64,000 bases of DNA from a bacterium (GCA_036796695.1 DAIRCK010000015.1:438-64437); one strand, 5' to 3'. Counted from the first letter of the stretch, positions 5,417 to 44,157 are shown. The notes: a model not told the origin generated them from the sequence alone. Program-made: numbers and translations.

Positions 5417-5581
5417 AATTTTATTTTATACATTTTTAGTTAAAAGTCAAGGAGAATTTTATTAAATATTCCAGCACAAAAAACACCGTTTGTCAATTAA
5501 CCGAACTTTGTTTAATTCTTATTATTTATACCAATTTTGATACCTTTCTTTGATTTTGAAAGAGAACTTATCTCTGAACTG

Positions 5582-5621
5582 GGAGCACGGTGAAAATTTT
5601 TTCGCGGTTGGAAACCGCTCC
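5582..5621. other. conserved nested hairpin motif, copy 1: GGAGCAC..TCGCGGTT-GGA-AACCGCTCC
   Basis: Nearly identical to 15614-15657. Inner stem is GCGGTT/AACCGC and outer stem is GGAGC/GCTCC. Lies upstream of the integrase and downstream of the 5758-6234 gene. Confidence 0.4.
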
Positions 5622-5757
5622 TAAAGAATTATGTACAATAAAGTGCACCATTTTCGAGCGTCTAAATAAGGAAATTCTTCGTCCGCTAAACTGTGGCGGA
5701 TTCGGATTTGGAATTTGTATAAAAATTTCTTAAAGTCTAATACCTGAACATACTTAT

Positions 5758-25955: not shown

Positions 25956-26936
25956 TTATTTTGCTTGTTTTAACTCAAGTATCTTATTCTTCAAAACCGG
26001 CACGACTTTGAACAGATCTTCAACAATTCCGTAATCTGCTTCGTTGAATATTGGTGCATTCGGGTCTTTATTCACAGCAATAATTGTATCAGAATTTTTC
26101 ATTCCCATTATATGTTGAAATGCACCAGAGATTCCAAGTGCGATGTATAACTTCGGTTTCACTGTCTTTCCTGATGAACCGACCTGATGTTCTTTTGGTA
26201 ACCAGCCTGCATCAACTACCGGTCTTGTGCATCCGAGAACACCGCCAATTGCCTTTGCAAAATCTTCTATTACTGGCAGATTAGCTTTATCTTTTATACC
26301 TCTTCCCACAGAGACAATTATGTCTGCCTTAGTAATATCAACTGCACCAACCGCTGCCTCAATGTATTCAATAAATTTCCGATATTCAGGTTGGGAATTC
26401 AGCGGTGTCTCTAATTTAACAACTTCTGCCTCAAGATTTCCAGTTTCTACCGGTATACTGCCGCTACGATAAGTCACAAGATACGATGGATTCTCTTTCA
26501 ATAAAATTCTTGCATTCAACTTTCCATCATACATTGACCTTATGACCCTTAATTTACCATCAAAAACCTGAACATCTATACAATCAGTGGAAAATGGAAT
26601 ATTCAATTGTGTAGCAAGAGATGGTCCTAAATCCATACCCATTGCAGTGTGGCCAATAATTGTGAGAAATGGATTTTCTTTTTTCAATATCTCATTTAAG
26701 GCAATCTGATAACTCTCCGCATTGAAATCCTTAAAAATCGCATTTTCCATCACGATAATCCTGTGGGCACTATTTTTCAACTGCCCGATAAATTTTTCTG
26801 TATTGTCAGAAAGTAAGACTGCACTGCACTGGGTATTTAAAGTTTGAGCAAGTTTTCTTCCCAGAGTTAAAAGTTCAAATGTAATATCCCTTATCACACC
26901 CTGACGGTGTTCAACCAAAGCAAAAATTCCATTCAT
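25956..26936 (-). CDS. etfA: electron transfer flavoprotein alpha subunit
   Basis: Etf alpha FAD-binding domain (VSVGRGI, PKLYIALGISGAFQH). 326 aa. No N-terminal ferredoxin domain. Confidence 0.9.
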   Translation of the reverse strand: MNGIFALVEHRQGVIRDITFELLTLGRKLAQTLNTQCSAVLLSDNTEKFIGQLKNSAHRIIVMENAIFKDFNAESYQIALNEILKKENPFLTIIGHTAMGMDLGPSLATQLNIPFSTDCIDVQVFDGKLRVIRSMYDGKLNARILLKENPSYLVTYRSGSIPVETGNLEAEVVKLETPLNSQPEYRKFIEYIEAAVGAVDITKADIIVSVGRGIKDKANLPVIEDFAKAIGGVLGCTRPVVDAGWLPKEHQVGSSGKTVKPKLYIALGISGAFQHIMGMKNSDTIIAVNKDPNAPIFNEADYGIVEDLFKVVPVLKNKILELKQAK

Positions 26937-26985
26937 AGTGGCTCCTTAGTCAATAATTGTAGTTGTCTGATTCATCAGATATGTT

Positions 26986-27012
26986 TGATAAATCAAACCG
27001 CTACATTGGAAC
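26986..27012. repeat. ATAAAT-loop hairpin motif, copy 4: TTTGATAAATCAAACCGCTACATTGG
   Basis: Lies between etfB and etfA. The arms covary (TTTGAT/ATCAAA). Confidence 0.45.
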
Positions 27013-27159
27013 TACTGAAAAAACTATAAACCATACTATTCGTCATGCTGAACCTTATCCTGGATTTAGTTCAGGATTGTTTAAGCATCCTATTAGACCC
27101 TGAAATAAATTCAGGGTGACAGAATACTTTTTCAGCAATTGCGCATAGATTATTCGGCA

Positions 27160-27930
27160 TTAAAGTAATCCCTTTTCCTTTATTATTCCGGCAAGTTTTG
27201 TTGCAACTTCATCAGCACTGCCTGTGAGTATTTCTGCCCTTTTTCCAACAGGTGGCAAGAAAAGTTCCTCAAGTGTAGTATTTGAAATAACATCTAAACC
27301 AATATCAGATTTCCCTATTGTCTTTATCTCCTTGCTTGCAGCCCTTCTGATTGCAATAAGAGATGCAAAACGCGGAGTGTTTATCCCAGTCTGTATTGTA
27401 ACCAATGCCGGAAGGTTTAGTTCAAGATGTTCAAGTAACCCACCTTCAAGTTCACGATAGACCTGTGCCTTATTGTTTGCAATATCAAATTTTGTAACGA
27501 GTGAGGCGTGTGGGATTCCTAATAACTCTGCCAATGTCTGTCCCACCATTGAATAGGCATCATCGGTTGACATACAACCAGTGAGGATCAAATCATAAGG
27601 TAATCCTTTTATCACCGAGTTTAATATTACTGCAGTCTTATAACCATCTATCTCGCCAAAATCCTCAGCCTTAATTCTTACTGCTGAATCACCACCTTTT
27701 GCCAGTGCAATCCTTAAGGTATCCTCGGTATCTGGATAACCAAGACTCACCACAGTAACAGTTCCACCATATTTCTCCTTTAATAAAATAGCCTCTTCAA
27801 GTGCATAACTATCAGATTCATTCATATCAAAGGCAAGACGGTCTTTTACAATATCCTTGCCCGTTGAATCAATCTTTACATCCGCCTCTGCGGTTTGAGG
27901 CACCCGTTTGATGCAGACGATAATATTCAA
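27160..27930 (-). CDS. etfB: electron transfer flavoprotein beta subunit
   Basis: Etf beta family throughout (MNIIVCIKRVPQT..). TTG start with RBS GGAGG. Confidence 0.9.
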   Translation of the reverse strand: MNIIVCIKRVPQTAEADVKIDSTGKDIVKDRLAFDMNESDSYALEEAILLKEKYGGTVTVVSLGYPDTEDTLRIALAKGGDSAVRIKAEDFGEIDGYKTAVILNSVIKGLPYDLILTGCMSTDDAYSMVGQTLAELLGIPHASLVTKFDIANNKAQVYRELEGGLLEHLELNLPALVTIQTGINTPRFASLIAIRRAASKEIKTIGKSDIGLDVISNTTLEELFLPPVGKRAEILTGSADEVATKLAGIIKEKGLL

Positions 27931-28004
27931 ATTGCCTCCTTATCTATAAAGGAAAAATTGATGCATACAAATTTAAGCAAATTCAGACGGATTAAGTATC
28001 CGTT

Positions 28005-28030
28005 TGCATCCGCAATCATCAGTTTGAATC
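28005..28030. promoter_or_regulatory. acd/etf upstream box, copy a (reverse orientation): TGCATCCGCAATCATCAGTTTGAATC
   Basis: Shares the two-half-site consensus seen at 29194, 29676 and 32421. Confidence 0.4.
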
Positions 28031-29173
28031 TTACTTAAGTAATTCCCTTGCAATCACAATCTTCTGGATCTCGCTTGTTCCTTCATAGAGTTCAAGAATC
28101 TTGGCATCGCGGTAGAATCGTTCAACTGCGTAGTCTTTTGTATAACCATAACCACCAAATATCTGCACAGCCTTACGTGTTACATCAACCGCAATTGTCG
28201 CAGCGTAGTATTTGCACATTGCTGATTCCTTAGAAAATCTTGGCATACCTTTATCTTTACAATAACCAGCATAATATACGAGCAATCTTGCTGCATGGAT
28301 CTGGGTCGCCATCTCTGCGAGCATTGATTGTATCATTTCAAATTCGCATATTGGCTGTCCAAATGCCTTTCGTTCTTTTGAATATTTTACTGCGGCCTCA
28401 AGGGCTGCCTGGGAAATTCCCACAGCCTGGGCACCAATATCCACCCTTGAAACATCGAGTGTATTCATACAGATCTTAAAACCTTCCCCTTCTTTACCAA
28501 GGAGATTTTCTTTTGGAACACGGCAATCCTCAAATATCAACTCACAATTACCACTTGCCCTTATACCCATAAGGTCTTCGTGTTTGCCCAGGGAAAATCC
28601 TGGTGTGCCGCGTTCCACAATAAAAGCACTCATCCCTTTGTGTTTAAGTTCTTTATTGGTATAAGCAAATACTACATAAATTCCGGCCTCTGTTCCATTA
28701 GTGATAAACCTCTTTGTTCCATTTAAAATATAATAATCACCATCAAGTTTTGCGGTCGTTTCCATACCTGCAACATCACTACCTGCATTGGGTTCGGTGA
28801 TACCAATTGCACCGATCTTTTCGCCACTACATAATAACGGCAGATATTTTTGTTTCTGTTCCTCAGTTCCAAAAGTCAAAATAGGGTAGGTACACAATGA
28901 GTTGTTCACAGCAACAACTACGCCCGTAGTTGCACAAACACGGGAAATTTCTTCAATGGCAATTGCCAGAGAAACAAAATCAAGACCTGAACCACCATAT
29001 TTTTCCGGCACAACAATGCCTAACAACCCCTGCTTTGCACATTTTTTTATGTTATTCCAGGGGAATTGTCCTGTTTTATCAATCTCCGGTGCTACAGGCG
29101 CAAGTTCTGCTTCGGCAAATTTGCGCACCTGGTCCTGTAGCATCTTTTGCTCAGATGTCAGATCAAAGTTCAT
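28031..29173 (-). CDS. acyl-CoA dehydrogenase (short/medium-chain, Bcd-like)
   Basis: ACAD N, middle and C domains with the catalytic Glu region (YEGTSEIQ). ATG at 29173 with RBS AAAGGAGG. The track's TTG start at 29200 would read through the upstream motif. Confidence 0.9.
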   Translation of the reverse strand: MNFDLTSEQKMLQDQVRKFAEAELAPVAPEIDKTGQFPWNNIKKCAKQGLLGIVVPEKYGGSGLDFVSLAIAIEEISRVCATTGVVVAVNNSLCTYPILTFGTEEQKQKYLPLLCSGEKIGAIGITEPNAGSDVAGMETTAKLDGDYYILNGTKRFITNGTEAGIYVVFAYTNKELKHKGMSAFIVERGTPGFSLGKHEDLMGIRASGNCELIFEDCRVPKENLLGKEGEGFKICMNTLDVSRVDIGAQAVGISQAALEAAVKYSKERKAFGQPICEFEMIQSMLAEMATQIHAARLLVYYAGYCKDKGMPRFSKESAMCKYYAATIAVDVTRKAVQIFGGYGYTKDYAVERFYRDAKILELYEGTSEIQKIVIARELLK

Positions 29174-29193
29174 ATTACCTCCTTTAACTATTA

Positions 29194-29219
29194 GATTCAA
29201 ACAGATTTATGCGGATTCA
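29194..29219. promoter_or_regulatory. acd/etf upstream box, copy b: GATTCAAACAGATTTATGCGGATTCA
   Basis: Lies 20-45 nt upstream of the acd start at 29173. Confidence 0.45.
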
Positions 29220-29272
29220 CACTGATTATTATTCGTTCACATCCCCAGCTCATCTTTTTGAATTCATATTTT

Positions 29273-29663
29273 TTATACAGACTTACGCCTTACTAAGCGA
29301 ATATACTCTAATTCAGGACTTCCAAAATTCACAAGCAACCCCACTTCGTAAGGCGAAGCCTTTAATTGAGAAATTAACTGTTCACGGAAAACTTTCGGTA
29401 AAAATTCAACCGCTTTCAATTCAAGAATAACTTTACCATCTATCACCAAATCAAGAAGAAATTTCCCAATTATCTTATTGTTATATTTGATATTTATCAC
29501 TTTCTCTTTTTTCGTACGGTATTTTTTGCTCATTTAATTCAATCTCTATCGCTCGCTGGTAAACCTTTTCGGGGAAACCACAACCAAGTGTTTTATGAAC
29601 CTTAAATAATATTCCAATTATTTTATATGTTAAATCTTTATAAAGCAATTTATCTGAATGCAT
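29273..29663 (-). pseudogene. GxxExxY-family protein gene split by a frameshift
   Basis: Two overlapping ORFs (29481-29663 and 29273-29533). Together they cover a GxxExxY protein (GCGFPEKVYQRAIEIEL .. LELKAV .. GLLVNFG). The frame changes in an A/T homopolymer near 29480-29530. Confidence 0.5.
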
Positions 29664-29675
29664 TATTTATCCGTT

Positions 29676-29703
29676 TGAATTCGCTAAAATCTGTTTGAAT
29701 CGG
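29676..29703. promoter_or_regulatory. acd/etf upstream box, copy c: TGAATTCGCTAAAATCTGTTTGAATCGG
   Basis: Lies downstream of acd 29713-30834, in opposite orientation to copies b and d. Confidence 0.4.
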
Positions 29704-29712
29704 TAGTATTTT

Positions 29713-30834
29713 TTATTTTCCCAGCACCTGTCTTGCAATAACAATTTTTTGAATCTCGCTCGTGCCTTCACCAATTTCCATCAGTTTTTCATCGCGCAAA
29801 AATCGTTCTACAGGGTATTCATCTGTTATTCCAAACAATCCATGTATATCAATCGCCAGACTCGTTGCCTTCATCCCGATTGTTGATGCATAATATTTTG
29901 CCATTGCCGATTCTTTAACATAAGGCAAACCAGCATCTTTTAATTGTGCTGCGTTGTAGATCAATAACCTCGCAGCTTCAATCTCAGTTGACATCTCAGC
30001 AATCCTTGATTGTATCGATTGTTCTTTGTGGAGATTATTCTCTTTAACAAACTTTATTGAGGCATCAAGTGCACCCTGGGCAATTCCCAAGGCAAGGGCA
30101 CCTATAGAAATCCTGCCACCATCAAGGGTTTCCATAAATATCTTAAAACCATCACCCTCTTTTCCCAGAAGATTTTCTTTTGGAATTACACAATCCTCAA
30201 ATATTAATTCCGATGTTATTGAACCACGAAGTCCGAGTTTATCCTCTTCCCTGCCTGGTGTAAATCCTGGAGTTCCTTTTTCCACAACGAATGCGGAAAT
30301 TCCTTTGTAACCCAATGATGGATCACTGGTCGCGGTAAAAATAATCACATCGGCAATATGGCCTGAGGTAATAAACCTCTTCGTCCCATTGATGATATAC
30401 TTATCACCGACCAATTTAAATCTTGTCTGGGTTCCAGCTGCGTCACTACCTGCATTAGGTTCGGTCAGACCAAATGAACCAATCTTTTCACCCCTTGCAA
30501 GGGGTATGAGCCACTTTTTTTTCTGTTCTTCAGTCCCGGCATAGTATATCGGAAACACCCCAAGTGAAGAATGGGCAGCAAGAAAAATGCCGGTAGAACC
30601 GCAAACCCTGCCAATCTCTTCTACCGCTATTGCATAAGAAAGAACATCAAGGCCTGCACCGCCATATTCTTCAGGCACATAAAGGGCAAGGAGTTTTAAC
30701 TCTGCCATCCTTTTCACTAAATCCCAGGGGAATTCACCCTTCTTATCTATCTCCTTTGCCCTGGGTGCAACCTCATTATCTGCAAAAGAGCGAACCATAT
30801 CTCTAAATTCTTTGTGTCTTTCACTCAAAATCAT
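29713..30834 (-). CDS. acyl-CoA dehydrogenase
   Basis: ACAD family. Roughly 50 percent identical to 28031-29173 by eye (LTEPNAGSD, GEGTSEIQ). Confidence 0.9.
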   Translation of the reverse strand: MILSERHKEFRDMVRSFADNEVAPRAKEIDKKGEFPWDLVKRMAELKLLALYVPEEYGGAGLDVLSYAIAVEEIGRVCGSTGIFLAAHSSLGVFPIYYAGTEEQKKKWLIPLARGEKIGSFGLTEPNAGSDAAGTQTRFKLVGDKYIINGTKRFITSGHIADVIIFTATSDPSLGYKGISAFVVEKGTPGFTPGREEDKLGLRGSITSELIFEDCVIPKENLLGKEGDGFKIFMETLDGGRISIGALALGIAQGALDASIKFVKENNLHKEQSIQSRIAEMSTEIEAARLLIYNAAQLKDAGLPYVKESAMAKYYASTIGMKATSLAIDIHGLFGITDEYPVERFLRDEKLMEIGEGTSEIQKIVIARQVLGK

Positions 30835-30939
30835 GATTCACCGCCTTTTTATCTTTTAAAAATCTCCCTCTTTAATTTCAAGGTGTGCCTCCTGTTAGGT
30901 AAAACCTCTTGGTAAGATAATCCTCTTTTGAAAAGAGAT

Positions 30940-31176
30940 TTAGAATCGTTTTCTGCTCTGTACTAAGAATTTTCTCTTCCTGGGCCATAACAAAAATTCC
31001 AAAAATCTTTTTGTCTCGGGGTCCATAAAAAGTTTCTTCCAGTATTTTCTGACTAATCTCTCGCTCAGTTTTTCACCACCCAATCCATAGTTAATCATCT
31101 GCTGGATCTTCCAGATTTTATACCCTTCCGGGTCTTCTTTTTTGAATTTCTTTTCATCAACAGACCAGTTATACAT
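30940..31176 (-). CDS. hypothetical small protein (78 aa)
   Basis: ORF only. Confidence 0.3.
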   Translation of the reverse strand: MYNWSVDEKKFKKEDPEGYKIWKIQQMINYGLGGEKLSERLVRKYWKKLFMDPETKRFLEFLLWPRKRKFLVQSRKRF

Positions 31177-31298
31177 AATTTCTCAATAGTGATTATTAAT
31201 GTAATGGTTTACACTGCATTTCGTTCCAGTTAAAGATACTCATTACCTTTAAATTTTATATATATTTGCCGAAAAAAATATTCAATTTTAAAATGATA

Positions 31299-32387
31299 TT
31301 AACCGAGTAATTCTCTTGCGATTTTCTCTTTCAAGACAAAGTTAGGTAGTCCCAAGACCTGGATTGTCTTTGCATCCCGCAGATAACGTTCCACTGGGTA
31401 ATCCTTTGTATAACCATAACCACCAAAAATCTGAACTCCCTTAATCCCGCAATAGAATGCGGCCTCGGTGTTTGAAACAAAAGCAAGTTTAACTGCCATT
31501 TTGTAGTCTTCTTTTGAATCATACCTATTTGCTGCATCATATAAAAGATTCCTTGATGATTCAATCTTTATCTTCATCTCTGCAAGCATCTCTTGAACCA
31601 TTGGAAATTCACAGATTGGTCTATTAAACTGCCGACGCTCTTTTGCATATTTTGTTGAAGCATCTAATGATGCCTGGGCAATGCCAAGACCTACTGCGGA
31701 AAGGCAGAGATTAAAATAATCTCTTATCTCCTTTGTAGCAGTATCATATTCCGGATTATCAAGTAAACAAAAACCATCAGGAATTTCGAAATTTTCAAAC
31801 GAGATATCAGCAACCCCTGAAGACCTCATCCCCAGTAGATAAGGATTTGTAACTCTGAATTTGTCAGAAGATTCAATGAGATATAGACTCCGGCCATTTT
31901 CAGTTTTTATATCTAATAACAAAAATTTTGCAAATGCACCATTTAAGACAAAACGGCTTCTACAATCTATCTTCAAAGGATTGTGGGAGATAATCTGAAG
32001 ATTCTTATCAAAGTCAATATCAATTCCACCCAGTTCACCATTACCAAGGCGTTTAAGATAAGTTTTTGATTTTTCATTTTGGGATTTCATCAAAGAATAG
32101 GCAACGAGACCATTATTTACCGCAATAACCAGTCCGACTGAAGCACAGACCTTTGACAACTCCTCAATTATTATGCATAAACTTGTGGTGTCAAATCCTG
32201 CTCCACCAAATTCTTGAGGAATTATTGGCGATAATATGCCGAGTTCATTTAGTTTCCTAAAAATCACTTCAGGGATACTTGCATTTTTTTCTATTTCCTG
32301 AACAATCGGCTCTATCTCCTGAAGGGTAAATTTCTTCACTTCATTCTGAATCATCTTCTGCTCATTGTTAAGATTGATTAAACCCAT
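31299..32387 (-). CDS. divergent acyl-CoA dehydrogenase-like protein (362 aa)
   Basis: Has the ACAD fold signature (GGYGYTKDYPVERYLRDAK) but a divergent N-terminus and middle domain. ATG with RBS AGGAG. Confidence 0.75.
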   Translation of the reverse strand: MGLINLNNEQKMIQNEVKKFTLQEIEPIVQEIEKNASIPEVIFRKLNELGILSPIIPQEFGGAGFDTTSLCIIIEELSKVCASVGLVIAVNNGLVAYSLMKSQNEKSKTYLKRLGNGELGGIDIDFDKNLQIISHNPLKIDCRSRFVLNGAFAKFLLLDIKTENGRSLYLIESSDKFRVTNPYLLGMRSSGVADISFENFEIPDGFCLLDNPEYDTATKEIRDYFNLCLSAVGLGIAQASLDASTKYAKERRQFNRPICEFPMVQEMLAEMKIKIESSRNLLYDAANRYDSKEDYKMAVKLAFVSNTEAAFYCGIKGVQIFGGYGYTKDYPVERYLRDAKTIQVLGLPNFVLKEKIARELLG

Positions 32388-32650: not shown

Positions 32651-34630
32651 TTGGTAGTAATGAAACGCCGCTTTTTCCCCTTACAAACAAAGTTGATTTT
32701 AAGTTTCTCCACAGTTATAATTATCGGGATATTCTTATCGACCTTTACCGGCATACAGATAATTGGGAATACAATAGTGGCACAGGGACAGGAAAAGGTT
32801 AAACTTGATTTAAATACTGCAAGAGAAGTTCTTGAAGAGGAAAAAAGGACGATAAAAAACATACTCAGATTGACCGCGAGCCGTTATTTTGTAAAGGATG
32901 CCCTTATTAAAAGAGATCGCATTTTTTTATTAAAAGAATTGAGAACGGTTAAAACTGATGAAAACCTGGATATATTAAATATCACAGACAATCTCGGCCG
33001 TATAATACTACGCGTGGAAAATCCAGAATATTGTAATGATTTTCCGGAAAATGAAATTTTAAAAAAAGTCTTAAAACAAAAAGAAAGCATATATGGAGTT
33101 CTAATAATATCCGAAGAAGAACTTAAAAAAGAAAGCGAGAAACTTGCTGAACGAGCAAAAATTAAAATACTACCCACACCCAAGGCAAAACCCCGTAATG
33201 ATACATTAGAAACATCCGGGTTGATTATTATTGCCGGGGCACCGATCTTTGATGATAATGGTAATCTCATCGGTGTTGTCTATGGTGGTAGATTATTAAA
33301 CAGGAATTTTGACATTGTAGATAAAATAAAGGATATTGTTTATAAAGAAGAAAAATTTAGAAAAAAAGAGATTGGCACAGCAACGATCTTCCTCAAGGAC
33401 CTTCGAATAACAACAAATGTTCGTGATATCACCGGACAAAGGGCTATCGGCACAAGGGTATCAGAAGAAGTATACAACCAGGTTTTAGTAAATGGCAGAC
33501 CCTGGGTCGGCAGGGCGTTTGTGGTAAATGACTGGTTTATTACGGCATACGAACCGATCCGGGATATAAATAATCAGATCGTTGGTATCCTGTATGTTGG
33601 AATGCTTGAGGCACCTTATGTATATCTAAAGAACCGTGTTATCTCAATATTCATTCTTATTGCAGTTCTAAGCATTATTGCGCTTGCAATAATTTCGTTC
33701 GTTACAGTAAAACGTATCACCAGACCGATAAATGAATTATATCAACTTACTGAAAGGGTTTCAAAGGGTGACCTCTCAGCACGAGCGAAGATTAGTTCAG
33801 ATGATGAAATTGGAGAATTGATAAAATCATTTAATCAAATGATTGATTCCCTTCAAAATGTTACCGAAGGCTACGTCAATCTTACCAAAACCCTTGAACA
33901 GAAGGTTCAGGAAAAGACAAACGAACTGGAAAAGGCAATGGAACAGTTAATCCAGAATGAAAAATTATCCGCCCTTGGCAGGCTTGCTGCAGGTATTGCC
34001 CACGAAATCAATAATCCGCTGACCGCAATCCTAATCAATGGCCATCTGATAAAAGAAAAGGTAAAAGGAGATACCAAACTATCAGAAAAACTTGATATGA
34101 TTATTGATGAGACACAACGGTGTGCAAAGATTGTAAGCGGACTTTTGGAATTTTCACGCCAGACACCACCTGAAATGAAACTTATCTCTATAAATGAAGT
34201 TATTAATAAAACACTCATCCTCTTTGAAAGCGTTTTTCTTGCCAATAATGTGAAAGTTGAAATCTCCCTTGATAAAAATCTATCTCAAATTATGGCGGAT
34301 GAGAGTAAAATAAAACAAGTATTGACGAATATTCTACTAAATGCACTTGACGCAATGCCCAACGGCGGGATTCTAAAAATTTATTCTCAACTTTCTTTAG
34401 ACAATAAATTTGTAGAAATAGAAATCGAAGACTCGGGTATAGGCATACCAGAGGAAAATCTGGATCGCATATTTGACCCTTTCTTTACAACAAAAAAATC
34501 AAAAGGAACAGGACTTGGGTTATCAATAAGTTATGGTATTATCCAGCAACATAATGGAAGTATTGAAGTAAATAGTGAAGTCAATAAAGGAACAAAAGTT
34601 AAAATAAAATTGCCTATATTAGAAAATTGA
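32651..34630 (+). CDS. sensor histidine kinase with a periplasmic Cache-like domain, HAMP, HisKA and HATPase (659 aa)
   Basis: Two TM helices flank a periplasmic region of about 290 aa. H-box AHEINNPL. The N box and G1/G2 boxes are present in the C-terminal ATPase (DSGIGIP, GTGLGLS). Confidence 0.85.
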   Translation: MVVMKRRFFPLQTKLILSFSTVIIIGIFLSTFTGIQIIGNTIVAQGQEKVKLDLNTAREVLEEEKRTIKNILRLTASRYFVKDALIKRDRIFLLKELRTVKTDENLDILNITDNLGRIILRVENPEYCNDFPENEILKKVLKQKESIYGVLIISEEELKKESEKLAERAKIKILPTPKAKPRNDTLETSGLIIIAGAPIFDDNGNLIGVVYGGRLLNRNFDIVDKIKDIVYKEEKFRKKEIGTATIFLKDLRITTNVRDITGQRAIGTRVSEEVYNQVLVNGRPWVGRAFVVNDWFITAYEPIRDINNQIVGILYVGMLEAPYVYLKNRVISIFILIAVLSIIALAIISFVTVKRITRPINELYQLTERVSKGDLSARAKISSDDEIGELIKSFNQMIDSLQNVTEGYVNLTKTLEQKVQEKTNELEKAMEQLIQNEKLSALGRLAAGIAHEINNPLTAILINGHLIKEKVKGDTKLSEKLDMIIDETQRCAKIVSGLLEFSRQTPPEMKLISINEVINKTLILFESVFLANNVKVEISLDKNLSQIMADESKIKQVLTNILLNALDAMPNGGILKIYSQLSLDNKFVEIEIEDSGIGIPEENLDRIFDPFFTTKKSKGTGLGLSISYGIIQQHNGSIEVNSEVNKGTKVKIKLPILEN

Positions 34631-34673: not shown

Positions 34674-35429
34674 ATGGATCAAAAGAAATTTAAAATTTTG
34701 GTTGTTGATGATGAGATAACTGTATGTAAAAGTATTACAAGTGCCCTTGAAGATTTTGACTATGTAGTCGATATGGCACTGAGTGGTGAAGAAGCAACTT
34801 TTAAACATAATAAAAACCATTATGATTTGGTCATTGCAGATTTAATGATGCCGGATATAACAGGCATTGAATTGCTGAAAAGAATAAAAGCAACAACTCC
34901 TGAGGTTCAGTTTATTCTCATAACCGGTTATCCATCAATAAAAACTGCTGTTGAGGCTATAAAATTCGGGGCATTTGATTATATACCAAAACCATTCACG
35001 CCTGATGAATTAAGAAGTATAATAAATCGCGCCCTTGATTATTATAAAAAGGAAAAAATTGAACTAATGCCCGTGCCTGCAGACTATTACTGCATAACAG
35101 ATAATTCCTGGGCAGAAATTGAAAAAGATGGCAATGTCAGAATTGGTGCCCATGAAAGACTGGTTAAAGGAATTAAAGAAATCTCAATGTTAGAATTTCC
35201 ATCCATTGGTGAAATGCGATATCAGGGTGAAGCCTGCGCAAGGATAAATACGGGTGCTAATCAAATATACAGGGTATGGACTCCAGTTTCCGGAAAAATA
35301 ATTAAAATAAATCAAGACCTTAATAAGAACTACAGTAAATTAATTACTGACCCCTATAATGAAGGCTGGTTGTTGATAATACAACCAACAAACTTAGAAT
35401 CGGATTTAAAAAATCTGACCAGATGCTAA
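34674..35429 (+). CDS. response regulator: REC domain fused to a glycine-cleavage-H-protein-like domain (251 aa)
   Basis: REC has VVDDE and the phospho-acceptor Asp in VIADLMMP. The C-terminal region of about 120 aa (VRIGAHERLVKG..GEACARINTGANQIY..DPYNEGWLLI) aligns with GcvH/lipoyl-fold proteins. The lipoyl-lysine position is not Lys. No HTH. Confidence 0.8.
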   Translation: MDQKKFKILVVDDEITVCKSITSALEDFDYVVDMALSGEEATFKHNKNHYDLVIADLMMPDITGIELLKRIKATTPEVQFILITGYPSIKTAVEAIKFGAFDYIPKPFTPDELRSIINRALDYYKKEKIELMPVPADYYCITDNSWAEIEKDGNVRIGAHERLVKGIKEISMLEFPSIGEMRYQGEACARINTGANQIYRVWTPVSGKIIKINQDLNKNYSKLITDPYNEGWLLIIQPTNLESDLKNLTRC

Positions 35430-35430: not shown

Positions 35431-38400
35431 TTGAATTCATTCGATATTGAAAAATTATTTAAAAAAATTCAGCTCTTACTTAAAAATTATGATTGCTATG
35501 ATGTTTATTTCTTAGATAACAAAGGCAAATGGAATAAAAACCCAGAGACCCTTAAAGACATAATCTCAAGTGAAGTCTGGTTCCGTATATGGGCATCATC
35601 TCGTTGTTCTAATAATGAAGAAACCCTTGATCTTTTTAAGCCCATCTTAAATAATGCCTATTTTCAAGACTTAATGAGTAAATTCACAAATATTGCAGAT
35701 GGAATGGAAATTGATATAACCGACACGCTAATTACCTTTGAAATCTTATACGTCCTAATTGAATACCAGATATACATATTGAATACTGAAAAATATATTC
35801 CGGATTGGAATTATCAAGAAAAGAAAATACAGAATGAATATCTTATAAGATTGGATAATTTTAAGAAAAATCTAAAAAATATTTTGAGTGATCCGATATT
35901 GTTTGATAGTTTTTTTCACATTCATAAAGAATTAACAAAGAACAACCTCTTCAATTCCATTTCAGTAACAATCAATGAAGAAATCAAATTTTATGAACAA
36001 CAGATTTTACATAAAGCAAAACTTGAAGAACCAAGAAAAATCACTCAAATTTATAATTTTTTGAGTAATAAAATAGATTTTGATATCGCTTCTGCTGTAA
36101 CCAAGAAACAGGCTCTTATCAGACCATTTTTAAGAGCACTAAATGATGCTACAAATCTTGTTCCAGTTGGTTTACAATTTGAAATTGTCTCAATCCTTGG
36201 TGCGTTAAAAGATCCGAGGTGTGCAAGAACCCTGTTCAACCTTTTGAAAAATACGAGTCTTGAATATATAAATCTCATATCAAATATTATATACACATTA
36301 GGAAATCTCCAGTTTAACGAGATGTCTGAATATTTAAAAATGATTCTCCAGTTACCTGATTACATTGATCTTTCTTCAGGATACAAACAGCCTATTTACG
36401 ATATAAAATCCGAAACGATTTGGTCTACCGGCAAACTTGGCATCTCAGGAATAAATCTCATCAATGAAATGGTAAAATACATATCTCACAAGGATAATAT
36501 AATAAAAATCGCGCTTGCCTGGGCAATGGCAATGATTGGTATAAAAGAGAAGAAAGAAGAAGGTGTCGTTGATCTTGAAATTCTCACAACTTTATTAGGA
36601 CTCCTGAAAGATAAAGATAAAAAGGTATTTGAAGAATCTATCTATGGTTTAAAAGTCTTAGGATTTTATGAACTCATTGATAATCTGAATCTAAACAATA
36701 TTCCAGCAACACCCATACTCGCTCTCAAGCCAAGCAGTATTGGTCTTTATGAACTCTCTGAAACTATTTATCATCTTGTTAATCTGAAAAAACCTGTTGT
36801 TATAGCAGTCACTGGAGATTCGGGCACAGGAAAGACTTATTTTTGTGAATCAATCAGATATGGTTTTGGTGACATTTCAAAAGATGATATACTTTATCTA
36901 ATGAGGGATAATCCTGCTCACCGAACAATATTCAGCAGGATGATTGATAAAAAATTCACAAAAGATTTTCTCGATCCACAATATTATACCATTGAAACAA
37001 TGGATGAAAGAAATCTTGAACCGTTTCAGGGTTTTTTTGACTTCATAAGACAAAATAGCCACAAGAAATTAATTATCCTTGATGGCTGGCTTGATGAGAT
37101 ATATTTTTATCAGGTTCTTAAGACTTTTTACATATATAGCTATCTTGATTGTATAATAAACTTCAGGGCAACATATTCAACAAGGAGAATCAATCTGGAG
37201 GAAAGAGAAGGAATCCTGGAACGGGTCAGAGATTGTTTAAGGTTTGTTGAGAATCCACCTATCGAAGAAACTGAATTTTATCGCAATGGTGATGTCTTTG
37301 TTTATAATCTTGATAACTCTATTGGTTCACGCCTCAGTGCTGATGAAATCAAAGAAGTCTTCAGTAGAAAAAAGGTCAGATTATGGGCCGAGCATATCCG
37401 AATTGGAAATTTTGAAAAGGAACTGAGAGAATTAAAAATCACAGAAGAAACTTTGAACAGACGGACCGAAGATTTTGTAATACAAAATGACGGTAAAATA
37501 GAAAGCGAAGAAGAAGCAATAGAAATATATAACGAACATTTTTTTAGAATAATTAATAGTGATATAGTTGAAAAGCCGATCCTGCTTCAGAAAATAAGAT
37601 TAAAAAAATCCATTCCAGAAAAAATATCGCGTTATGCACCAGGTGTAATTGCCTACCATAATACTAATGGCATTGTCGGTATATTAACTGGAATTAATGA
37701 CCAGAATTATTTTACGCAGATTAAAGAAAATAAAATCTATGATCACTGCATTTATAATGATTTGTTCTTTGCAATTGGAGAGGAAAGTAAAATCTATGCG
37801 TTTGATTTTAGTAAAAATCTTTTGAGAACCTTAAAAATATCAGCCTCTCCCCTATCTGCAATTGCTACCGACCGGAATAATATCATTGCCACCGGACATC
37901 AGGATGGAACAATAAGATTATGGGATATTAACTCAGAGATGACGTACCTGCTCAAAGGACATAAGAATTCAATAATCAGTATCGTGATTGATAAGAAAGG
38001 TATAATTGTATCAAATAGTAGTGATGGCGAATTGAGATTATGGAATTTACATAAAAATTCAATAAAAATATACAATAATATGAATTTTAACACCAACCTG
38101 ATAGGTCTGGAACGACCCTCAGGTAACATAATTTTTGTTAAAAGAAATAATGTTGTAAGATTAGACCCAGAAAATGAAACAGTAAAAATAATTTCTTTAC
38201 CGAATTACATTGAACCAATTGCATTCTGTCCCTATTATGACGGCAGAATATTCGCAGGTTATAGAAAAGAAGATAGAACATATTTTATCGTTATTGAATT
38301 TAAAAAAGACAAAGGATTTTACAATACCATCAGGATTGATATAAATAAAATTAATGGTATAACGGCAATGGGACCCAGGATTATCATATCTGGTATGGAC

Positions 38401-38520
38401 AACGATGGAGCAATCATAGAGATTCTGGGTAGTGAAGACTATGTCCGGGGCGAGATTGAAAAACTAAAGATTCTCAAGAATTCAAAACGTCGTTTTCAAT
38501 ACCATAGTATGATATTCTGA
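35431..38520 (+). CDS. large multidomain protein: HEAT-like repeats, PRK/uridine-kinase-like P-loop domain and a WD40 beta-propeller (1029 aa)
   Basis: HEAT/PBS-lyase-like repeats (ALAWAMAMIGIKEK..LLGLLKDKDKK). Walker A VIAVTGDSGTGKTYF matches the PRK/UK family; hhhhDG at KLIILDGWLD. WD repeats (GHQDGTIRLWDINS, SDGELRLWNLH). TTG start 2 nt after the regulator stop. Confidence 0.7.
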   Translation: MNSFDIEKLFKKIQLLLKNYDCYDVYFLDNKGKWNKNPETLKDIISSEVWFRIWASSRCSNNEETLDLFKPILNNAYFQDLMSKFTNIADGMEIDITDTLITFEILYVLIEYQIYILNTEKYIPDWNYQEKKIQNEYLIRLDNFKKNLKNILSDPILFDSFFHIHKELTKNNLFNSISVTINEEIKFYEQQILHKAKLEEPRKITQIYNFLSNKIDFDIASAVTKKQALIRPFLRALNDATNLVPVGLQFEIVSILGALKDPRCARTLFNLLKNTSLEYINLISNIIYTLGNLQFNEMSEYLKMILQLPDYIDLSSGYKQPIYDIKSETIWSTGKLGISGINLINEMVKYISHKDNIIKIALAWAMAMIGIKEKKEEGVVDLEILTTLLGLLKDKDKKVFEESIYGLKVLGFYELIDNLNLNNIPATPILALKPSSIGLYELSETIYHLVNLKKPVVIAVTGDSGTGKTYFCESIRYGFGDISKDDILYLMRDNPAHRTIFSRMIDKKFTKDFLDPQYYTIETMDERNLEPFQGFFDFIRQNSHKKLIILDGWLDEIYFYQVLKTFYIYSYLDCIINFRATYSTRRINLEEREGILERVRDCLRFVENPPIEETEFYRNGDVFVYNLDNSIGSRLSADEIKEVFSRKKVRLWAEHIRIGNFEKELRELKITEETLNRRTEDFVIQNDGKIESEEEAIEIYNEHFFRIINSDIVEKPILLQKIRLKKSIPEKISRYAPGVIAYHNTNGIVGILTGINDQNYFTQIKENKIYDHCIYNDLFFAIGEESKIYAFDFSKNLLRTLKISASPLSAIATDRNNIIATGHQDGTIRLWDINSEMTYLLKGHKNSIISIVIDKKGIIVSNSSDGELRLWNLHKNSIKIYNNMNFNTNLIGLERPSGNIIFVKRNNVVRLDPENETVKIISLPNYIEPIAFCPYYDGRIFAGYRKEDRTYFIVIEFKKDKGFYNTIRIDINKINGITAMGPRIIISGMDNDGAIIEILGSEDYVRGEIEKLKILKNSKRRFQYHSMIF

Positions 38521-40139: not shown

Positions 40140-40511
40140 ATGAATCTTTCTAATATTAAAGAAATCCTTAATGCAAAAATTCTTACCAATTATGTTTCGC
40201 TGGAGATTGATGTTAAAAATGTAATTGCATCAGACCTGATGAGCGATGTCTTAAATAGTAAGAATCCTGCGGATTTACTCTTAACCGGATTGATTAATAC
40301 CCAGGCTATAAGGACCTGTGAGATTGCAGGGATAAAGGCAATTCTGTTTGTTAAAGGTAAAACCCCAGATGAAGAGACGATAAAACTTGCTGAATCCTGT
40401 AATATTCCATTGCTTTCCTGTTCTCTCTCTATGTTTGAAGCCTGCGGGATATTATATTCATATGGTCTCATCTACCCTGATTCAAAGAATGGAAACAGAA
40501 ATAATCCTTAA
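40140..40511 (+). CDS. DRTGG-domain protein (123 aa)
   Basis: Similar to the 42193-42543 protein and to DRTGG domains (LLLTGL..AIRTCE..AILFVKG). Confidence 0.6.
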   Translation: MNLSNIKEILNAKILTNYVSLEIDVKNVIASDLMSDVLNSKNPADLLLTGLINTQAIRTCEIAGIKAILFVKGKTPDEETIKLAESCNIPLLSCSLSMFEACGILYSYGLIYPDSKNGNRNNP

Positions 40512-40932
40512 TGAGGAGTTTGAAATTACCGGTGGTGATTTCATAAATGGTGGAGCTGCCTCCTGCAGGGTTAAGAATATTCTTAAAGAGATCGGACTTG
40601 CACCAGAAATCATCCGCAGGGTTGCAATCGCATCTTATGAAGCAGAAATGAATGTTGTAATGTATGCAAAAAAAGGAATAATGAAACTTATTCTGACATC
40701 TGATAAAATAATCATAAAGGTTGATGATGAAGGACCAGGGATACCCGATATAGAGTTAGCAATGCAACCCGGGTATTCAACTGCGACGCCAGAAATAAGA
40801 GAGATGGGCTTTGGTGCAGGAATGGGTTTACCAAATATAAAGAAGAACGCTGATATTTTTAATATAAATTCTACGGTTGATAAAGGAACAAACCTTGAAA
40901 TAATTATAAACCTGAATACCAAAAATGACTGA
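40489..40932 (+). CDS. small histidine-kinase-like ATPase (anti-sigma-factor/Ser-protein-kinase type)
   Basis: HATPase_c-like (DDEGPGIP, GFGAGMGL). The internal ATG at 40489 is the preferred start; the track begins at 40387. Confidence 0.6.
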   Translation: METEIILNEEFEITGGDFINGGAASCRVKNILKEIGLAPEIIRRVAIASYEAEMNVVMYAKKGIMKLILTSDKIIIKVDDEGPGIPDIELAMQPGYSTATPEIREMGFGAGMGLPNIKKNADIFNINSTVDKGTNLEIIINLNTKND

Positions 40933-42196
40933 ACCAATATACCATTCAATTAAAATAAACGAAACAAAATGCATTGGCTGTGTCGTATGTATGAAAGCCT
41001 GCCCGACCAAGGCAATTAGAATCAAACAGAGGAAGGCACGGGTTATTGCTGAACGTTGCATTGATTGTGGTGAATGTCTCAGGGTCTGTCCATATAATGC
41101 AATAACCCCTTTAACCACCCAGTCTTCAGATATCAATCGTTTTAAAATGAAGATTGCCCTACCCAGTCCGGTAATCTATTCACAATTTGGTTCTGAGGTT
41201 ATGCCCTATCAAATTCTCAATGCATTAAAAGAGCTGGGTTTTGACTATGCCTTTGACGAAGCACTTGCCTGTGAGATGGTATCTATCGCTATACAGGAGT
41301 ATCTTGTAAGAAATCCCCTGCCAAGACCAATAATTTCATCAACCTGCCCGGTCGTGGTCCGACTTATACAGAGATTATTCCCGGGTCTCGTATCATTGAT
41401 AATCAAAATGGAACCACCAAGGGAGATTGCAGCCAAAAATTTAAGAAAAGAATTATCCAGGGAATATAAAATTCCTGAGTCTGATCTCGGTATATTCCAT
41501 ATTACACCCTGTCCTGCAAAGATGGTTTCTATAAACAGGCCTGAAACTATGGAAAAATCATATCTTGATGGTGCAATTTCAATAAAAGAAATTTATAACC
41601 AGGTGATGGCACGTTTAAAAAAGAAAGAAAAAAAATTTTTGTTGCATACACAGAGCCAGGTTAGCGGTATTGGTATTGGTTGGGCAATCTCAGGTGGTGA
41701 GATAAGGGGTATAAAGGGTGATTCTGTGGTTTCAGTTTCTGGTGTCTATGATACAATAAAAATTCTGAGTGATGTAGAAAGTGGAAAGATAAAGAATATT
41801 GATTACCTTGAATGCCTCATCTGTCCTGACGGTTGTATTGGTGGACCTTTAACAGTAGAAAATAGATTCCTGGCAAAAAGCACCATTCTCAGCCTGATTA
41901 GACAGTTTGGCGGAAAAAACCGGATTGATACCAATTATGTCCGACAACTATACGAGAAAAATTTCTTTTCGTTTGAAAGGGATATAAAACCAAAACCATT
42001 CCCGCCCCTTGACCCAAATAAAAATGAAGCGATAAAAAAACTGAAAAAGAAAGAAAAAATACTAAAAAACCTGCCCGGCATCAACTGTGGGGTCTGTGGT
42101 TCACCAGATTGTGAATCATTTGCCGAAGACCTTGTCCGCAATGAACAGGGACTTACAGTTGGTAGGTGTGTATTCTTAGGAGAATCAAATCTATGA
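40925..42196 (+). CDS. [FeFe]-hydrogenase-like protein (putative sensory, HfsB/HydS type) with an N-terminal 2x[4Fe-4S] ferredoxin and a C-terminal extra Cys cluster
   Basis: Ferredoxin motifs CIGCVVCMKACP and CIDCGECLRVCP. H-domain motifs L1 ISSTCP (canonical TSCCP), L2 ITPCPAKM (MPCxxK) and L3 ECLICPDGCIGGP (ExMACxGGCxxGGGQP). C-terminal CGVCGSPDC..C. Confidence 0.75.
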   Translation: MTEPIYHSIKINETKCIGCVVCMKACPTKAIRIKQRKARVIAERCIDCGECLRVCPYNAITPLTTQSSDINRFKMKIALPSPVIYSQFGSEVMPYQILNALKELGFDYAFDEALACEMVSIAIQEYLVRNPLPRPIISSTCPVVVRLIQRLFPGLVSLIIKMEPPREIAAKNLRKELSREYKIPESDLGIFHITPCPAKMVSINRPETMEKSYLDGAISIKEIYNQVMARLKKKEKKFLLHTQSQVSGIGIGWAISGGEIRGIKGDSVVSVSGVYDTIKILSDVESGKIKNIDYLECLICPDGCIGGPLTVENRFLAKSTILSLIRQFGGKNRIDTNYVRQLYEKNFFSFERDIKPKPFPPLDPNKNEAIKKLKKKEKILKNLPGINCGVCGSPDCESFAEDLVRNEQGLTVGRCVFLGESNL

Positions 42197-42543
42197 AGAT
42201 ATTAAAACTTGCCGAAATAATAAAAAATTTAAACCTGAAGATAGAATATGGTGAAAAATATAAAGACCGCGATGTTAGCGGTGGATATGTGAGCGACCTC
42301 TTGAGTGATGTAATGGCAAATGCGAAAAAGGGTGATATATGGATTACTTTGCAGACACATCCTAATATCGTAGCAGTTGCAGTTTTAAAAGAAATATCTG
42401 GGATCATTATTGTTGGCAATCGCAAACCTGAACCTGAAACTTTAAAAAAAGCAGAACAGGAAAAAATCCCGATAATGACGACCGAATTATCCGGCTTTGA
42501 GATTGTAGGAAGATTGTATGAGATGGGCATAGGTGCGACCTGA
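42193..42543 (+). CDS. DRTGG-domain protein (about 116 aa)
   Basis: Has a DRDVSGGYVSDLLSDVM motif. Its ATG overlaps the stop of the hydrogenase-like gene (ATGA). Confidence 0.6.
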   Translation: MKILKLAEIIKNLNLKIEYGEKYKDRDVSGGYVSDLLSDVMANAKKGDIWITLQTHPNIVAVAVLKEISGIIIVGNRKPEPETLKKAEQEKIPIMTTELSGFEIVGRLYEMGIGAT

Positions 42544-42557
42544 TAACCATTAGCAAT

Positions 42558-43403
42558 ATGCTAAAATGTTACCGTGCCGACCTCCATATCCATACCTGCC
42601 TCTCACCCTGTGCAGATTTGACGATGTCACCGAAAAGATTGGTAGAAAGGGCAAAGGTTAAGATGCTGGATATCATTGGGATATGTGATCATAACTCGGC
42701 TGAGAATATCCAATATGCTATAAATGCTGTAAGAACGCCTCACCTTAATCCTTTTCCTGTTAAAACGGGGAGAGAGAAGGATGGGGGGATGGACTGCAGG
42801 CACAGTCAGCCATTTCGTATGGCGGATTTTCCCTGTCCGTCTTTAACAGTGCTTCCTGGTATGGAAATCTGCACAAAAGAAGAGGTTCATATTCTCGGGA
42901 TCTTTGATGAACTAAGTGCAGTGTTGAAATTGCAGGAACTCGTTTATCAGTCATTACCAGAAGAAAAAAATAATCCTGAATTATTTGGCGAACAGATTAT
43001 TGCCAACGAGTTTGACGAGGTTGAAGGTTATAATGAAAGGTTGCTTATAGGTGCATCCAGTTTATCCATAAAAGAGGTTGTTGATGAAATACATAGACTC
43101 AGAGGTATAGCAATCGCCTCACATATTGACCGTGAGAGTTTTAGTGTTATCAGTCAACTGGGATTTATTTCTGAGGAATTAAATTTTGATGCCTTAGAAA
43201 TCTCCCCAAATATTACAATAGAAGAAGCAAATAGAAAATTTCCTGAAATCAAAAAATTTCCCATAATACAAAATTCTGATGCCCATTTCCTTGAAGATAT
43301 TGGAAAGGCGAACACTGATTTTTATATTCAAGAGCCAACAATAGAAGAAATAAGAATGGCATTACTCAATGAAAAAGGCAGGAGGATAAGTTACCAATGC
43401 TAA
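42558..43403 (+). CDS. PHP-domain phosphoesterase (281 aa)
   Basis: N-terminal ADLHIHTCLSPCAD and GICDHNS form the PHP His-rich metal site. Confidence 0.8.
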   Translation: MLKCYRADLHIHTCLSPCADLTMSPKRLVERAKVKMLDIIGICDHNSAENIQYAINAVRTPHLNPFPVKTGREKDGGMDCRHSQPFRMADFPCPSLTVLPGMEICTKEEVHILGIFDELSAVLKLQELVYQSLPEEKNNPELFGEQIIANEFDEVEGYNERLLIGASSLSIKEVVDEIHRLRGIAIASHIDRESFSVISQLGFISEELNFDALEISPNITIEEANRKFPEIKKFPIIQNSDAHFLEDIGKANTDFYIQEPTIEEIRMALLNEKGRRISYQC

Positions 43404-43605
43404 ATTCTAAATCCCAAATTCTAATCCACCGAACTGTGTGGTGGACTAAACAAATTCCAATTATCAAACTTTACAATTTCCCAAACATTTTTAAATATTG
43501 GAATTTAGGATTTAAATATTGTTTAGAAATTGGTGCTTGGTCCGCCACTCTTCCGCCAATCAGTGTGGTGAATGGTGGTTTGGAATTTAAATTTTTGGGT
43601 GTCTG

Positions 43606-44157
43606 ATGCAGGACTTATCTCTCCATATCTTAGATATTGTGGAAAATTCCATAGATGCAGGAGCAACGAAGATTGAAATTATGATTGATGAAGATATTGA
43701 ACATAATCAATTGAAAATCAAAATAAAGGACAATGGCAAGGGAATGGATAAAGAAACATTGAAAAAGGTTCTCGACCCATTTTACACGACAAAGACCGTA
43801 CGTCGGGTAGGAATGGGGTTATCACTATTTGCCCAAACAATCCAGGAGGCAGAAGGTAAGATTGTAATAAAATCTAAACTTAAAAAAGGAACATCGGTCA
43901 GTGCCACATTAAAGTATAACCATATAGACCGGAAACCAATGGGCAATATGATAGAAACAATAATGGCACTATTAGCAACAAAGGCACACGACATAGACTT
44001 TATATATGTTCACAGAAAAAATAAAGAGGAGTTTATATTGAATACAAAAGAGATAAAGAAAGAACTGGATGGTGTTATGATAAATGAACCTGAGGTTCTA
44101 AAATTTTTAAGAACCCAAATTAAAAAGGGTTTGAAGGAAATAGGTGTGGCGGTATGA
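43606..44157 (+). CDS. stand-alone histidine-kinase-like ATPase (183 aa)
   Basis: N box HILDIVENSIDAGA, G1 DNGKGMD, G2 GMGLSL. Confidence 0.7.
   Translation: MQDLSLHILDIVENSIDAGATKIEIMIDEDIEHNQLKIKIKDNGKGMDKETLKKVLDPFYTTKTVRRVGMGLSLFAQTIQEAEGKIVIKSKLKKGTSVSATLKYNHIDRKPMGNMIETIMALLATKAHDIDFIYVHRKNKEEFILNTKEIKKELDGVMINEPEVLKFLRTQIKKGLKEIGVAV

Follow-up and report, generated by a model that had tools for sequence, protein, structure and literature searches.

Introduction

The glycine cleavage system's H-protein, GcvH, carries lipoate on a hairpin lysine and serves as a swinging-arm carrier. Lipoyl ligases recognise the E-S-V-K context of this lysine on a protruding beta-hairpin. RssB, in turn, consists of a receiver and a catalytically dead PP2C fold, and it works as an adaptor. 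The present work concerns a response regulator in which a receiver (REC) domain is followed by a GcvH-like domain that has lost the lipoyl-lysine. The regulator is encoded in a 64,000-nucleotide stretch of DNA from a bacterium (GCA_036796695.1 DAIRCK010000015.1:438-64437), the whole of which is referred to below as the window and has a G+C content of 37 %. Response regulators with neither a DNA-binding output nor an output of a known enzyme type are the least understood part of two-component signalling. The REC-GcvH family is large and has a clear candidate partner, the protein referred to below as BIG.

Paralogues of GcvH that act outside glycine cleavage and are lipoylated have been described. 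They include LbpA, which belongs to the sHdr sulfur-oxidation system (PMC6067878), and the S. aureus protein GcvH-L, which has a role other than in the glycine cleavage system (PMC5049849, PMC12440151). GcvH is also the likely ancestor of Simiate/Abitram (FAM206A) (PMC3859600).

A receiver fused to a GcvH homologue

On the sequence comparisons and the predicted structure, the output domain of the regulator is a genuine GcvH homologue, with a similarity far beyond chance. The initial annotation, which had read this open reading frame (ORF) as a receiver with a GcvH-like output domain, is borne out by Pfam, by hhalign and by AlphaFold2 (AF2) modelling combined with Foldseek searches. The gene and its parts are the following; amino acid (aa) numbers refer to the protein, and the confidence of the model is given as the predicted local distance difference test (pLDDT) score.

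34674..35429, + strand: response regulator gene, REC plus lysine-less GcvH-like domain (251 aa, ATG start, TAA stop)
34695..35024, + strand: receiver (REC) domain, aa 8-117 (Pfam Response_reg, E 6e-30)
34839..34841, + strand: codon of the phospho-acceptor D56, inside the REC domain
35025..35078, + strand: inter-domain linker, aa 118-135, comprising the end of helix alpha5 and a variable segment (lowest pLDDT block, 75, without conserved residues)
35079..35426, + strand: GcvH-like barrel-sandwich-hybrid domain, aa 136-251 (Pfam GCV_H, aa 141-248)
35229..35279, + strand: former lipoyl hairpin, aa 186-202 (EACARINTGANQIYRVW), from the alignments and the AF2 model
35259..35261, + strand: N196 at the lipoyl-lysine position, from three independent alignments

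The Pfam GCV_H model matches with an E-value of 5.4e-14 and 52.6 bits, against a gathering cut-off of 22.2. The NCBIfam model PRK01202 (GcvH) gives an E-value of 2.4e-17 and 62.9 bits, which is under its curated cut-off of 117. When aa 127-251 are compared with the PDB chains by phmmer, the matches are H-proteins only, the best being 3tzu (E 5e-13). In the profile-profile comparison with hhalign, in which 18 family domains were aligned to 10 canonical GcvH sequences, the probability is 99.8 % and the E-value 6e-30 over 120 columns; the similarity is thus not spurious. The AF2 model of the regulator, based on an alignment of 41 family members, has a pLDDT of 92.6 and a predicted template-modelling score (pTM) of 0.88, the latter implying a receiver/GcvH interface in the model. 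The C-terminal half is predicted to adopt the GcvH fold. In Foldseek, it superposes on the E. coli H-protein (3a8j_E, 3a7a_B, 3ab9) with a template-modelling (TM) score of 0.84 (range 0.83-0.85, target-normalised) and a root-mean-square deviation (rmsd) of 1.6 Å over ~118 columns, and the matched H-protein structures include ones solved in complex with T-protein and LplA. The core motifs of GcvH are kept, namely W146, the V-R-I-G strand, P-V-S-G, D-P-Y-x-x-G-W and the C-terminal helix. The three strings named in the initial annotation are all present: VRIGAHERL at aa 155-163, EACARINTGAN at aa 186-196 and DPYNEGWLLI at aa 226-235. Within the domain, 15 positions are invariant among members of 45-82 % identity.

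The receiver half of the AF2 model contains five beta-alpha units, and many receivers are matched at 1.0-1.5 Å in Foldseek. Its fold is near those of the NtrC1, LuxO, RssB and NtrX receivers, and the receiver is close to that of P. aeruginosa RssB (3f7a) at 37 % identity. The acidic pair D12 and D13, the phospho-acceptor D56, T84 and K106 are invariant in the 41 family members. The best NCBIfam models for the receiver are those of the NtrC-type regulators ZraR, AtoC and NtrC; they span at most aa 1-146, with scores far under their cut-offs. Over the 251 aa, Pfam and NCBIfam give no DNA-binding, enzymatic or other third domain; Pfam finds neither Sigma54_activat nor HTH_8 in the regulator, and there is no dedicated NCBIfam model for the REC-GcvH architecture among its matches. 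Identity as an NtrC-family sigma-54 activator was considered and ruled out, the regulator having neither a sigma-54 AAA+ domain nor a Fis-type helix-turn-helix. By all criteria that can be tested in sequence (fold, phospho-residues and the adjoining kinase described below), the protein is classed as a true two-component response regulator.

A word-indexed search with the regulator returned 1875 proteins at E ≤ 1e-3. The 120 close homologues listed of these 1875 matches, called below the 120 listed homologues, all contain both PF00072 and PF01597 (120/120), so that REC-GcvH fusions homologous to the window protein do exist.

Loss of the lipoyl-lysine

The lipoyl-lysine, invariant in the canonical set of 10 GcvH sequences, is missing from the window regulator, as had been proposed. 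Three alignments (phmmer against PDB H-proteins, MAFFT with E. coli GcvH, and hhalign) all place N196 opposite the lysine of E-S-V-K, and all three put a one-residue insertion in the strand ahead of it. No Lys occurs from aa 169 to 207. In the AF2 model, the hairpin is formed by strands aa 187-193 and 198-202, with G194-A195-N196-Q197 at the tip. The base of the hairpin is fixed and its tip variable: Q184, G185, W202 and P204 are invariant and E186 is found in 119 of the 120 listed homologues, which gives a constant Q184-G185-E186 on one side and W202-x-P204 on the other. At the lipoyl column itself, the same 120 proteins have G (27), K (23), D (20), N (19), E (13) and others. Since this column varies freely across the family, the domain is not expected to be a lipoyl carrier.

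A second comparison used 50 %-identity representatives recovered with the domain profile. Lysine occupies the lipoyl column in 4 of the 66 proteins of REC-GcvH size versus 21 of the 42 stand-alone proteins, which bear the canonical ESVKA. Lysine loss thus appears as a trait of the family and is not limited to the window gene. With the lipoyl-lysine lost, the domain would be unable to serve as a swinging-arm carrier, and the term 'non-lipoylatable' is justified by sequence logic. The domain has the fold and homology of GcvH; it is not a functional GcvH, given the missing lysine, the score under the curated cut-off and the absence of gcvT/gcvP and lipoate ligase/synthase genes from the flanks surveyed.

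The sole well-conserved Cys of the domain is C188, which is C in 105/120 listed homologues and has a Cys counterpart in E. coli GcvH. The window regulator contains no Fe-S motif.

Size, distribution and naming of the family

The nearest database copy of the regulator, from a candidate division WOR-3 bacterium, is 93 % identical. Full-length REC-GcvH proteins occur in at least 12 phyla, nearly all uncultured. Copies are found in metagenome-assembled genomes (MAGs) of WOR-3, Eisenbacteria, Gemmatimonadota, Aminicenantes, Bacteroidota, Caldithrix, Lysobacterales/Gammaproteobacteria, Sumerlaeota, Zixibacteria, Nitrospirota and Thermodesulfobacteriota, with further ones in one 'Clostridiales' MAG and one 'Heimdallarchaeota' MAG. 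The latter is locus L008 (DXJL01000014.1, labelled Candidatus Heimdallarchaeota), a 5.9-kb contig with a complete kinase / REC-GcvH / BIG module. It is probably bacterial and mis-binned, because its regulator is 55 % identical to the bacterial protein of the window. With a profile of the domain only, 6828 representatives among 1.84 billion are matched at E ≤ 1e-3 and 1512 at E ≤ 1e-10, canonical GcvH included.

As a sequence object the fusion is not new, because automated annotations already show it. The existing labels are 'response regulator' or, from the Joint Genome Institute (JGI), 'CheY-like chemotaxis protein/glycine cleavage system H lipoate-binding protein'; the JGI name wrongly implies lipoate binding. 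A literature search, with thin coverage of subscription journals, found no paper or curated family on REC-GcvH, and within it the term 'GcvH-like' leads to lipoylated GcvH-L and LbpA only. The lysine loss, its family-wide nature and the conserved three-gene module described in the next section appear to be undescribed. Learning the binding partner of the domain would annotate thousands of 'hypothetical' or mis-named proteins.

The sensor kinase and the partner gene

In the window, the regulator gene lies between two genes on the same strand.

32651..34630, + strand: sensor histidine kinase, 659 aa, with a transmembrane segment, Cache_3 (sCache_3_3 / Cache_3-Cache_2), HAMP, HisKA and HATPase_c (Pfam)
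35431..38520, + strand: BIG, 1029 aa, with N-terminal HEAT-like repeats and a C-terminal WD40 propeller (Pfam) and a central P-loop nucleoside triphosphatase (NTPase)/kinase-like domain

The neighbourhoods were surveyed by calling and clustering the ORFs of 23 full-length loci. The loci, numbered with the prefix L, come from a contig scan with receiver-derived peptide patterns; most of the 80 loci it returned are receiver-only relatives, and only ~20 are full-length REC-GcvH. The kinase ends 43 nt before the regulator gene, and an orthologous Cache3-HAMP kinase (39-59 % identity) lies upstream of REC-GcvH in 18 of the 23 loci. Its core is nearest to AtoS/ZraS in NCBIfam.

In the window, the stop codon of the regulator and the start codon of BIG are separated by 1 nt; L088 shows a 4-nt overlap between these genes. 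This spacing suggests that regulator and BIG are probably translationally coupled. BIG is found directly 3' of REC-GcvH in the window, L001, L003, L007, L008 and L010-L014, loci that span WOR-3, Eisenbacteria, Gemmatimonadota, Aminicenantes and others. When 25 regulators are placed in a neighbour-joining tree, all those linked to BIG fall into a single clade. Of the 16 loci of this clade, 12 have BIG next to the regulator, and the other four branch from within it. The linkage was also approached from the side of BIG. Three of three distant homologues (30-32 % identity; L087, L088, L089) are preceded by a Cache3 kinase and a REC-GCV_H gene, and in 11 more pairs of regulator and BIG clusters the longest contigs are of identical size in both search tables. 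In the sampled loci, BIG always stands behind a Cache3 kinase and a REC-GcvH regulator. The neighbours of the fusion are thus the Cache3 kinase and, in the window's clade, BIG.

BIG measures ~1,030-1,075 aa across the window's clade, and its P-loop core is strongly conserved (GDSGTGKT, LIILDGW). Its family comprises 145 matches, labelled only as hypothetical, HEAT repeat or WD40 repeat protein. Profile searches of the central domain against PDB give matches at the level of the Walker A motif only, and Pfam gives only sub-threshold P-loop families (AAA_18, PRK, NACHT, nSTAND3; E 1e-2 to 1e-5). The AF2 model of the domain has a pLDDT of 69 and, in Foldseek, a weak likeness to adenylate, UMP-CMP and uridine kinases at TM 0.4-0.5. 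The domain may weakly be assigned as P-loop NTPase/kinase-like, with nothing more specific. A role of BIG as a STAND/NLR-like or anti-phage NTPase was also considered and rejected: PADLOC returns nothing specific, only a 60-aa Walker-A match to LmuB, the length is constant and the synteny is of a housekeeping type.

Several observations concern the surroundings of this module. In the window, genes for three acyl-CoA dehydrogenases and the alpha and beta subunits of electron transfer flavoprotein (ETF) lie divergently upstream, at about 25956..32387 on the - strand. An acetyl-CoA hydrolase/transferase gene stands between kinase and REC-GcvH in L003 (6623..7918, Eisenbacteria MAG) and L007 (5571..6866, Gemmatimonadota MAG). 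The neighbouring acyl-CoA and acetyl-CoA genes are weak hints that the kinase might respond to short-chain acyl compounds or organic acids. In L087, an extra stand-alone receiver gene (5559..5966, 135 aa) is placed between REC-GcvH and BIG, and the same assembly type also has a paralogous kinase/REC-GcvH pair without BIG (L005).

Kinases orthologous to that of the window are elsewhere paired with REC-HisKA-HATPase hybrids (~355 aa) or with proteins of the arrangement REC / Cys-rich linker / REC (~405-418 aa), as in L043, L053, L056, L075 and related loci. Within the kinase family, the downstream partner has been exchanged repeatedly. In L028 (4103..11824, Spirochaetota MAG), a homologous Cache3 kinase is followed by a REC-HisKA-HATPase gene, a B12-radical SAM gene and then a canonical, lysine-bearing gcvH-gcvPA-gcvPB. 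This order, a single case, may hint at the way in which the fusion of a receiver with a gcvH gene arose.

A second clade and other architectures

A second clade of the family (L016-L021, L050) is found without BIG; L020 was placed there by locus content only, as it is outside the 25-regulator tree. Most of its loci contain a 4Fe-4S protein with a twin-arginine translocation (TAT) signal and an NrfD-type membrane protein; in L018 and L019, a gene for a multihaem cytochrome c is also present. The genes of L016-L019 run from the kinase through a soluble REC-GcvH (~263 aa) to a membrane-anchored form with a transmembrane segment ahead of REC-GcvH (~385 aa). L021 has the kinase and both regulators in another order, and L020 the membrane-anchored form only. 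A receiver-less sigma-54 activator is also present in L018 and L050.

The domain occurs in further contexts, seen with Pfam among selected representatives (numbered with the prefix P). In P0360, a Cys-rich N-terminus and GCV_H precede HisKA and HATPase_c, so that the domain takes the sensor position. P0257 joins REC and GCV_H to an HdrC-like Fer4_8 module (2x[4Fe-4S]). P0244 carries three GCV_H copies with GlcD-like FAD_binding_4/FAD-oxidase_C, Fer4_8 and two CCG domains (HdrD-like). P0338 and P0324 consist of a transmembrane segment, GCV_H and a helical extension. The lipoyl-column K is absent from P0244, P0257, P0324, P0338 and P0360, the exception among the selected representatives being P0357. 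The lysine-less GcvH domain is therefore a broad signalling/redox module and not a peculiarity of this gene. The H-protein fold is usually seen as a swinging arm reserved for the lipoyl group. In a form without the lysine, it has been recruited repeatedly: by regulators, by a kinase, by membrane proteins and by redox enzymes of the Hdr-like type. A C-terminal extension of the form 'D/E-L-K/R-N-L ... G..A..WY..E ... QDGG' is common to many of P0244, P0257, P0360, P0338, P0324 and P0357.

Further along the window, at 40387..44157 (+ strand), lie genes for a HATPase_c_2 protein, a [FeFe]-hydrogenase-like protein (Fer4 + Fe_hyd_lg_C + FeS, 423 aa), a PHP-family protein and a second HATPase_c protein. 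By analogy, this group resembles a sensory-hydrogenase signalling cluster. It is followed by an IS200-type Y1 transposase gene at 44154..44798.

Proposed mechanism and alternative explanations

The REC-GcvH feature is real and reproducible, and its interpretation is plausible, now with a candidate partner. The GcvH-like domain very probably has a non-carrier role in signalling. In the proposed mechanism, the membrane Cache3-HAMP kinase would sense an extracytoplasmic ligand and phosphorylate D56, as the conserved residues and the pairing of the genes suggest. Phosphorylation would then alter the presentation or exposure of the GcvH-like domain, which would bind the genetically linked BIG and switch its NTPase/kinase-like activity or its assembly. 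HEAT and WD40 repeats are classical protein-binding scaffolds, and for this reason the P-loop activity or the assembly of BIG could be controlled in this way. The phosphorylated receiver would thus use a pseudo-carrier domain as a protein-binding output on BIG, much as in RssB. This specific reading is given roughly even chances of being correct.

The initial annotation had described a carrier fold repurposed as a phospho-regulated interaction module. The fold and the loss of the lysine are upheld. The interaction role fits the evidence (the intact receiver, the lack of any DNA-binding or catalytic domain, the tight coupling to BIG) and is best kept as a prediction.

Several points weigh against BIG as the target. 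Four loci inside the BIG-linked clade (L002, L005, L009, L015) have no adjacent BIG. The whole second clade (L016-L021, L050, L081 and others) lacks it as well and lies beside Fe-S, NrfD and multihaem-cytochrome genes, which means that BIG cannot be a universal target. Relatives of the domain that stand N-terminally in a histidine kinase or are fused to HdrC/HdrD-like Fe-S modules point to sensing or redox docking. Finally, the adjacency of regulator and BIG may reflect co-regulation only.

A broader proposal can be put forward only tentatively. According to it, REC-GcvH and BIG constitute an undescribed output branch of two-component signalling, in which a pseudo-lipoyl-carrier domain is the phosphorylation-controlled ligand of an NTPase scaffold, and the lysine-less GcvH domain is a general signalling/redox-docking module, used in histidine kinases, membrane-anchored proteins and Hdr-like Fe-S enzymes. 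If true, this output branch would be widespread in the uncultured FCB group and neighbouring phyla (WOR-3, Eisenbacteria, Gemmatimonadota, Aminicenantes, Zixibacteria, Bacteroidota, Caldithrix).

The main rival explanation, considered unlikely, is that the GcvH-like domain is a second input, which binds a ligand, a cofactor or a redox partner and so joins phosphorylation with a metabolic or redox signal. The cavity of the lipoamide arm could serve as the ligand site, or the domain could dock to Fe-S/Hdr-like or cytochrome complexes. The closely scoring lysine-less domain of P0360 occupies the usual place of a sensor, N-terminal to HisKA-HATPase_c, and the fusions with an HdrC-like 2x[4Fe-4S] module (P0257) and, in triplicate, with a GlcD-like FAD oxidase plus Fer4 and two CCG domains of HdrD-like type (P0244) point in the same direction, as does the pairing of soluble and membrane-anchored REC-GcvH beside TAT-FeS, NrfD and multihaem cytochrome c genes in the second clade. 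However, no ligand-binding residues can be named. The window regulator is also devoid of an Fe-S motif, its C188 is shared with E. coli GcvH, and the conserved partner in its clade is a scaffold/NTPase and not a redox enzyme.

It is quite improbable that the domain is a mere dimerisation or structural appendage, the regulator being a phosphate sink or a feedback partner of the kinase and BIG only co-transcribed. Receiver proteins are often phosphate sinks. Homologous Cache3 kinases followed by REC-HisKA-HATPase or REC-x-REC proteins (L028, L043, L053, L056, L075) indicate that these systems are prone to branched phosphorelays, and the additional receiver between regulator and BIG in L087 would suit such an arrangement. 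An appendage, however, is difficult to reconcile with the strong conservation of the domain, seen in its 15 invariant positions, or with its retention in at least 12 phyla, a breadth that speaks for a specific function. Linkage to BIG, moreover, persists down to about 30 % identity.

Still less probable, to the point of being remote, is a decoy H-protein that would exert phosphorylation-dependent control over the glycine-cleavage T, P and L proteins or over LplA, LipB, LipA or LipL. The shape of the H-protein is kept, at 1.6 Å from the E. coli protein, including its complexes with T-protein and LplA, and the Cache3 kinase of L028 lies three genes upstream of a canonical gcvH-gcvPA-gcvPB. L028 itself, however, has no REC-GcvH fusion, no gcv or lipoylation gene was found in the flanks surveyed, within about 7-10 kb of the regulator in 26 REC-GcvH loci, and variability within the domain is highest in the hairpin recognised by those enzymes.

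Finally, it is scarcely credible that the domain is still lipoylated or acylated on another lysine, such as K246 of the D-L-K-N-L motif (present in 90 % of members or more), or on the lysine that a minority (23/120) has at the canonical column of the hairpin: K246 belongs to the C-terminal helix and not to a protruding beta-hairpin, the E-S-V-K context is absent, the free occurrence of G, D, N and E at the column is incompatible with an essential modification, and the hairpin region of the window regulator is free of Lys.

Comparison with known systems

The closest relative by descent is GcvH itself (PF01597; E. coli, PDB 3ab9 / 3a8j), which is homologous to the domain, has the same barrel-sandwich-hybrid fold and shares its core motifs. 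In contrast to GcvH, the regulator has N196 for the lysine, and E-S-V-K gives way to another sequence, with one residue inserted. GcvH is a stand-alone protein of ~130 aa, whereas here the domain is fused behind a receiver, and in the flanks surveyed its gene lies apart from gcvT, gcvP and the genes of lipoylation. LbpA and GcvH-L retain the lysine and carry lipoate, while REC-GcvH has lost the lysine and become fused to signalling domains. LbpA is tied to Hdr-like Fe-S enzymes, as are the P0244 and P0257 relatives of the domain. Simiate/Abitram, like REC-GcvH, is derived from GcvH and has a role outside glycine cleavage, a likeness of role and not of tested homology; unlike REC-GcvH, it is eukaryotic, stand-alone and unrelated to two-component signalling. 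To our knowledge, it has no lipoyl function.

On the signalling side, the NtrC, AtoC and ZraR regulators with their AtoS/ZraS-like kinases are alike in receiver and kinase core; here, the output region is wholly replaced by the GcvH-like domain. RssB-type adaptors offer a working analogy and not a family membership. Like REC-GcvH, they combine a receiver with a degenerate fold of formerly chemical function, and the output is presumed to be a protein-protein interaction. The C-terminal fold is PP2C-like in RssB and GcvH-like here, and where RssB acts on sigma-S/ClpXP, the proposed target of REC-GcvH is the HEAT/P-loop/WD40 protein BIG.

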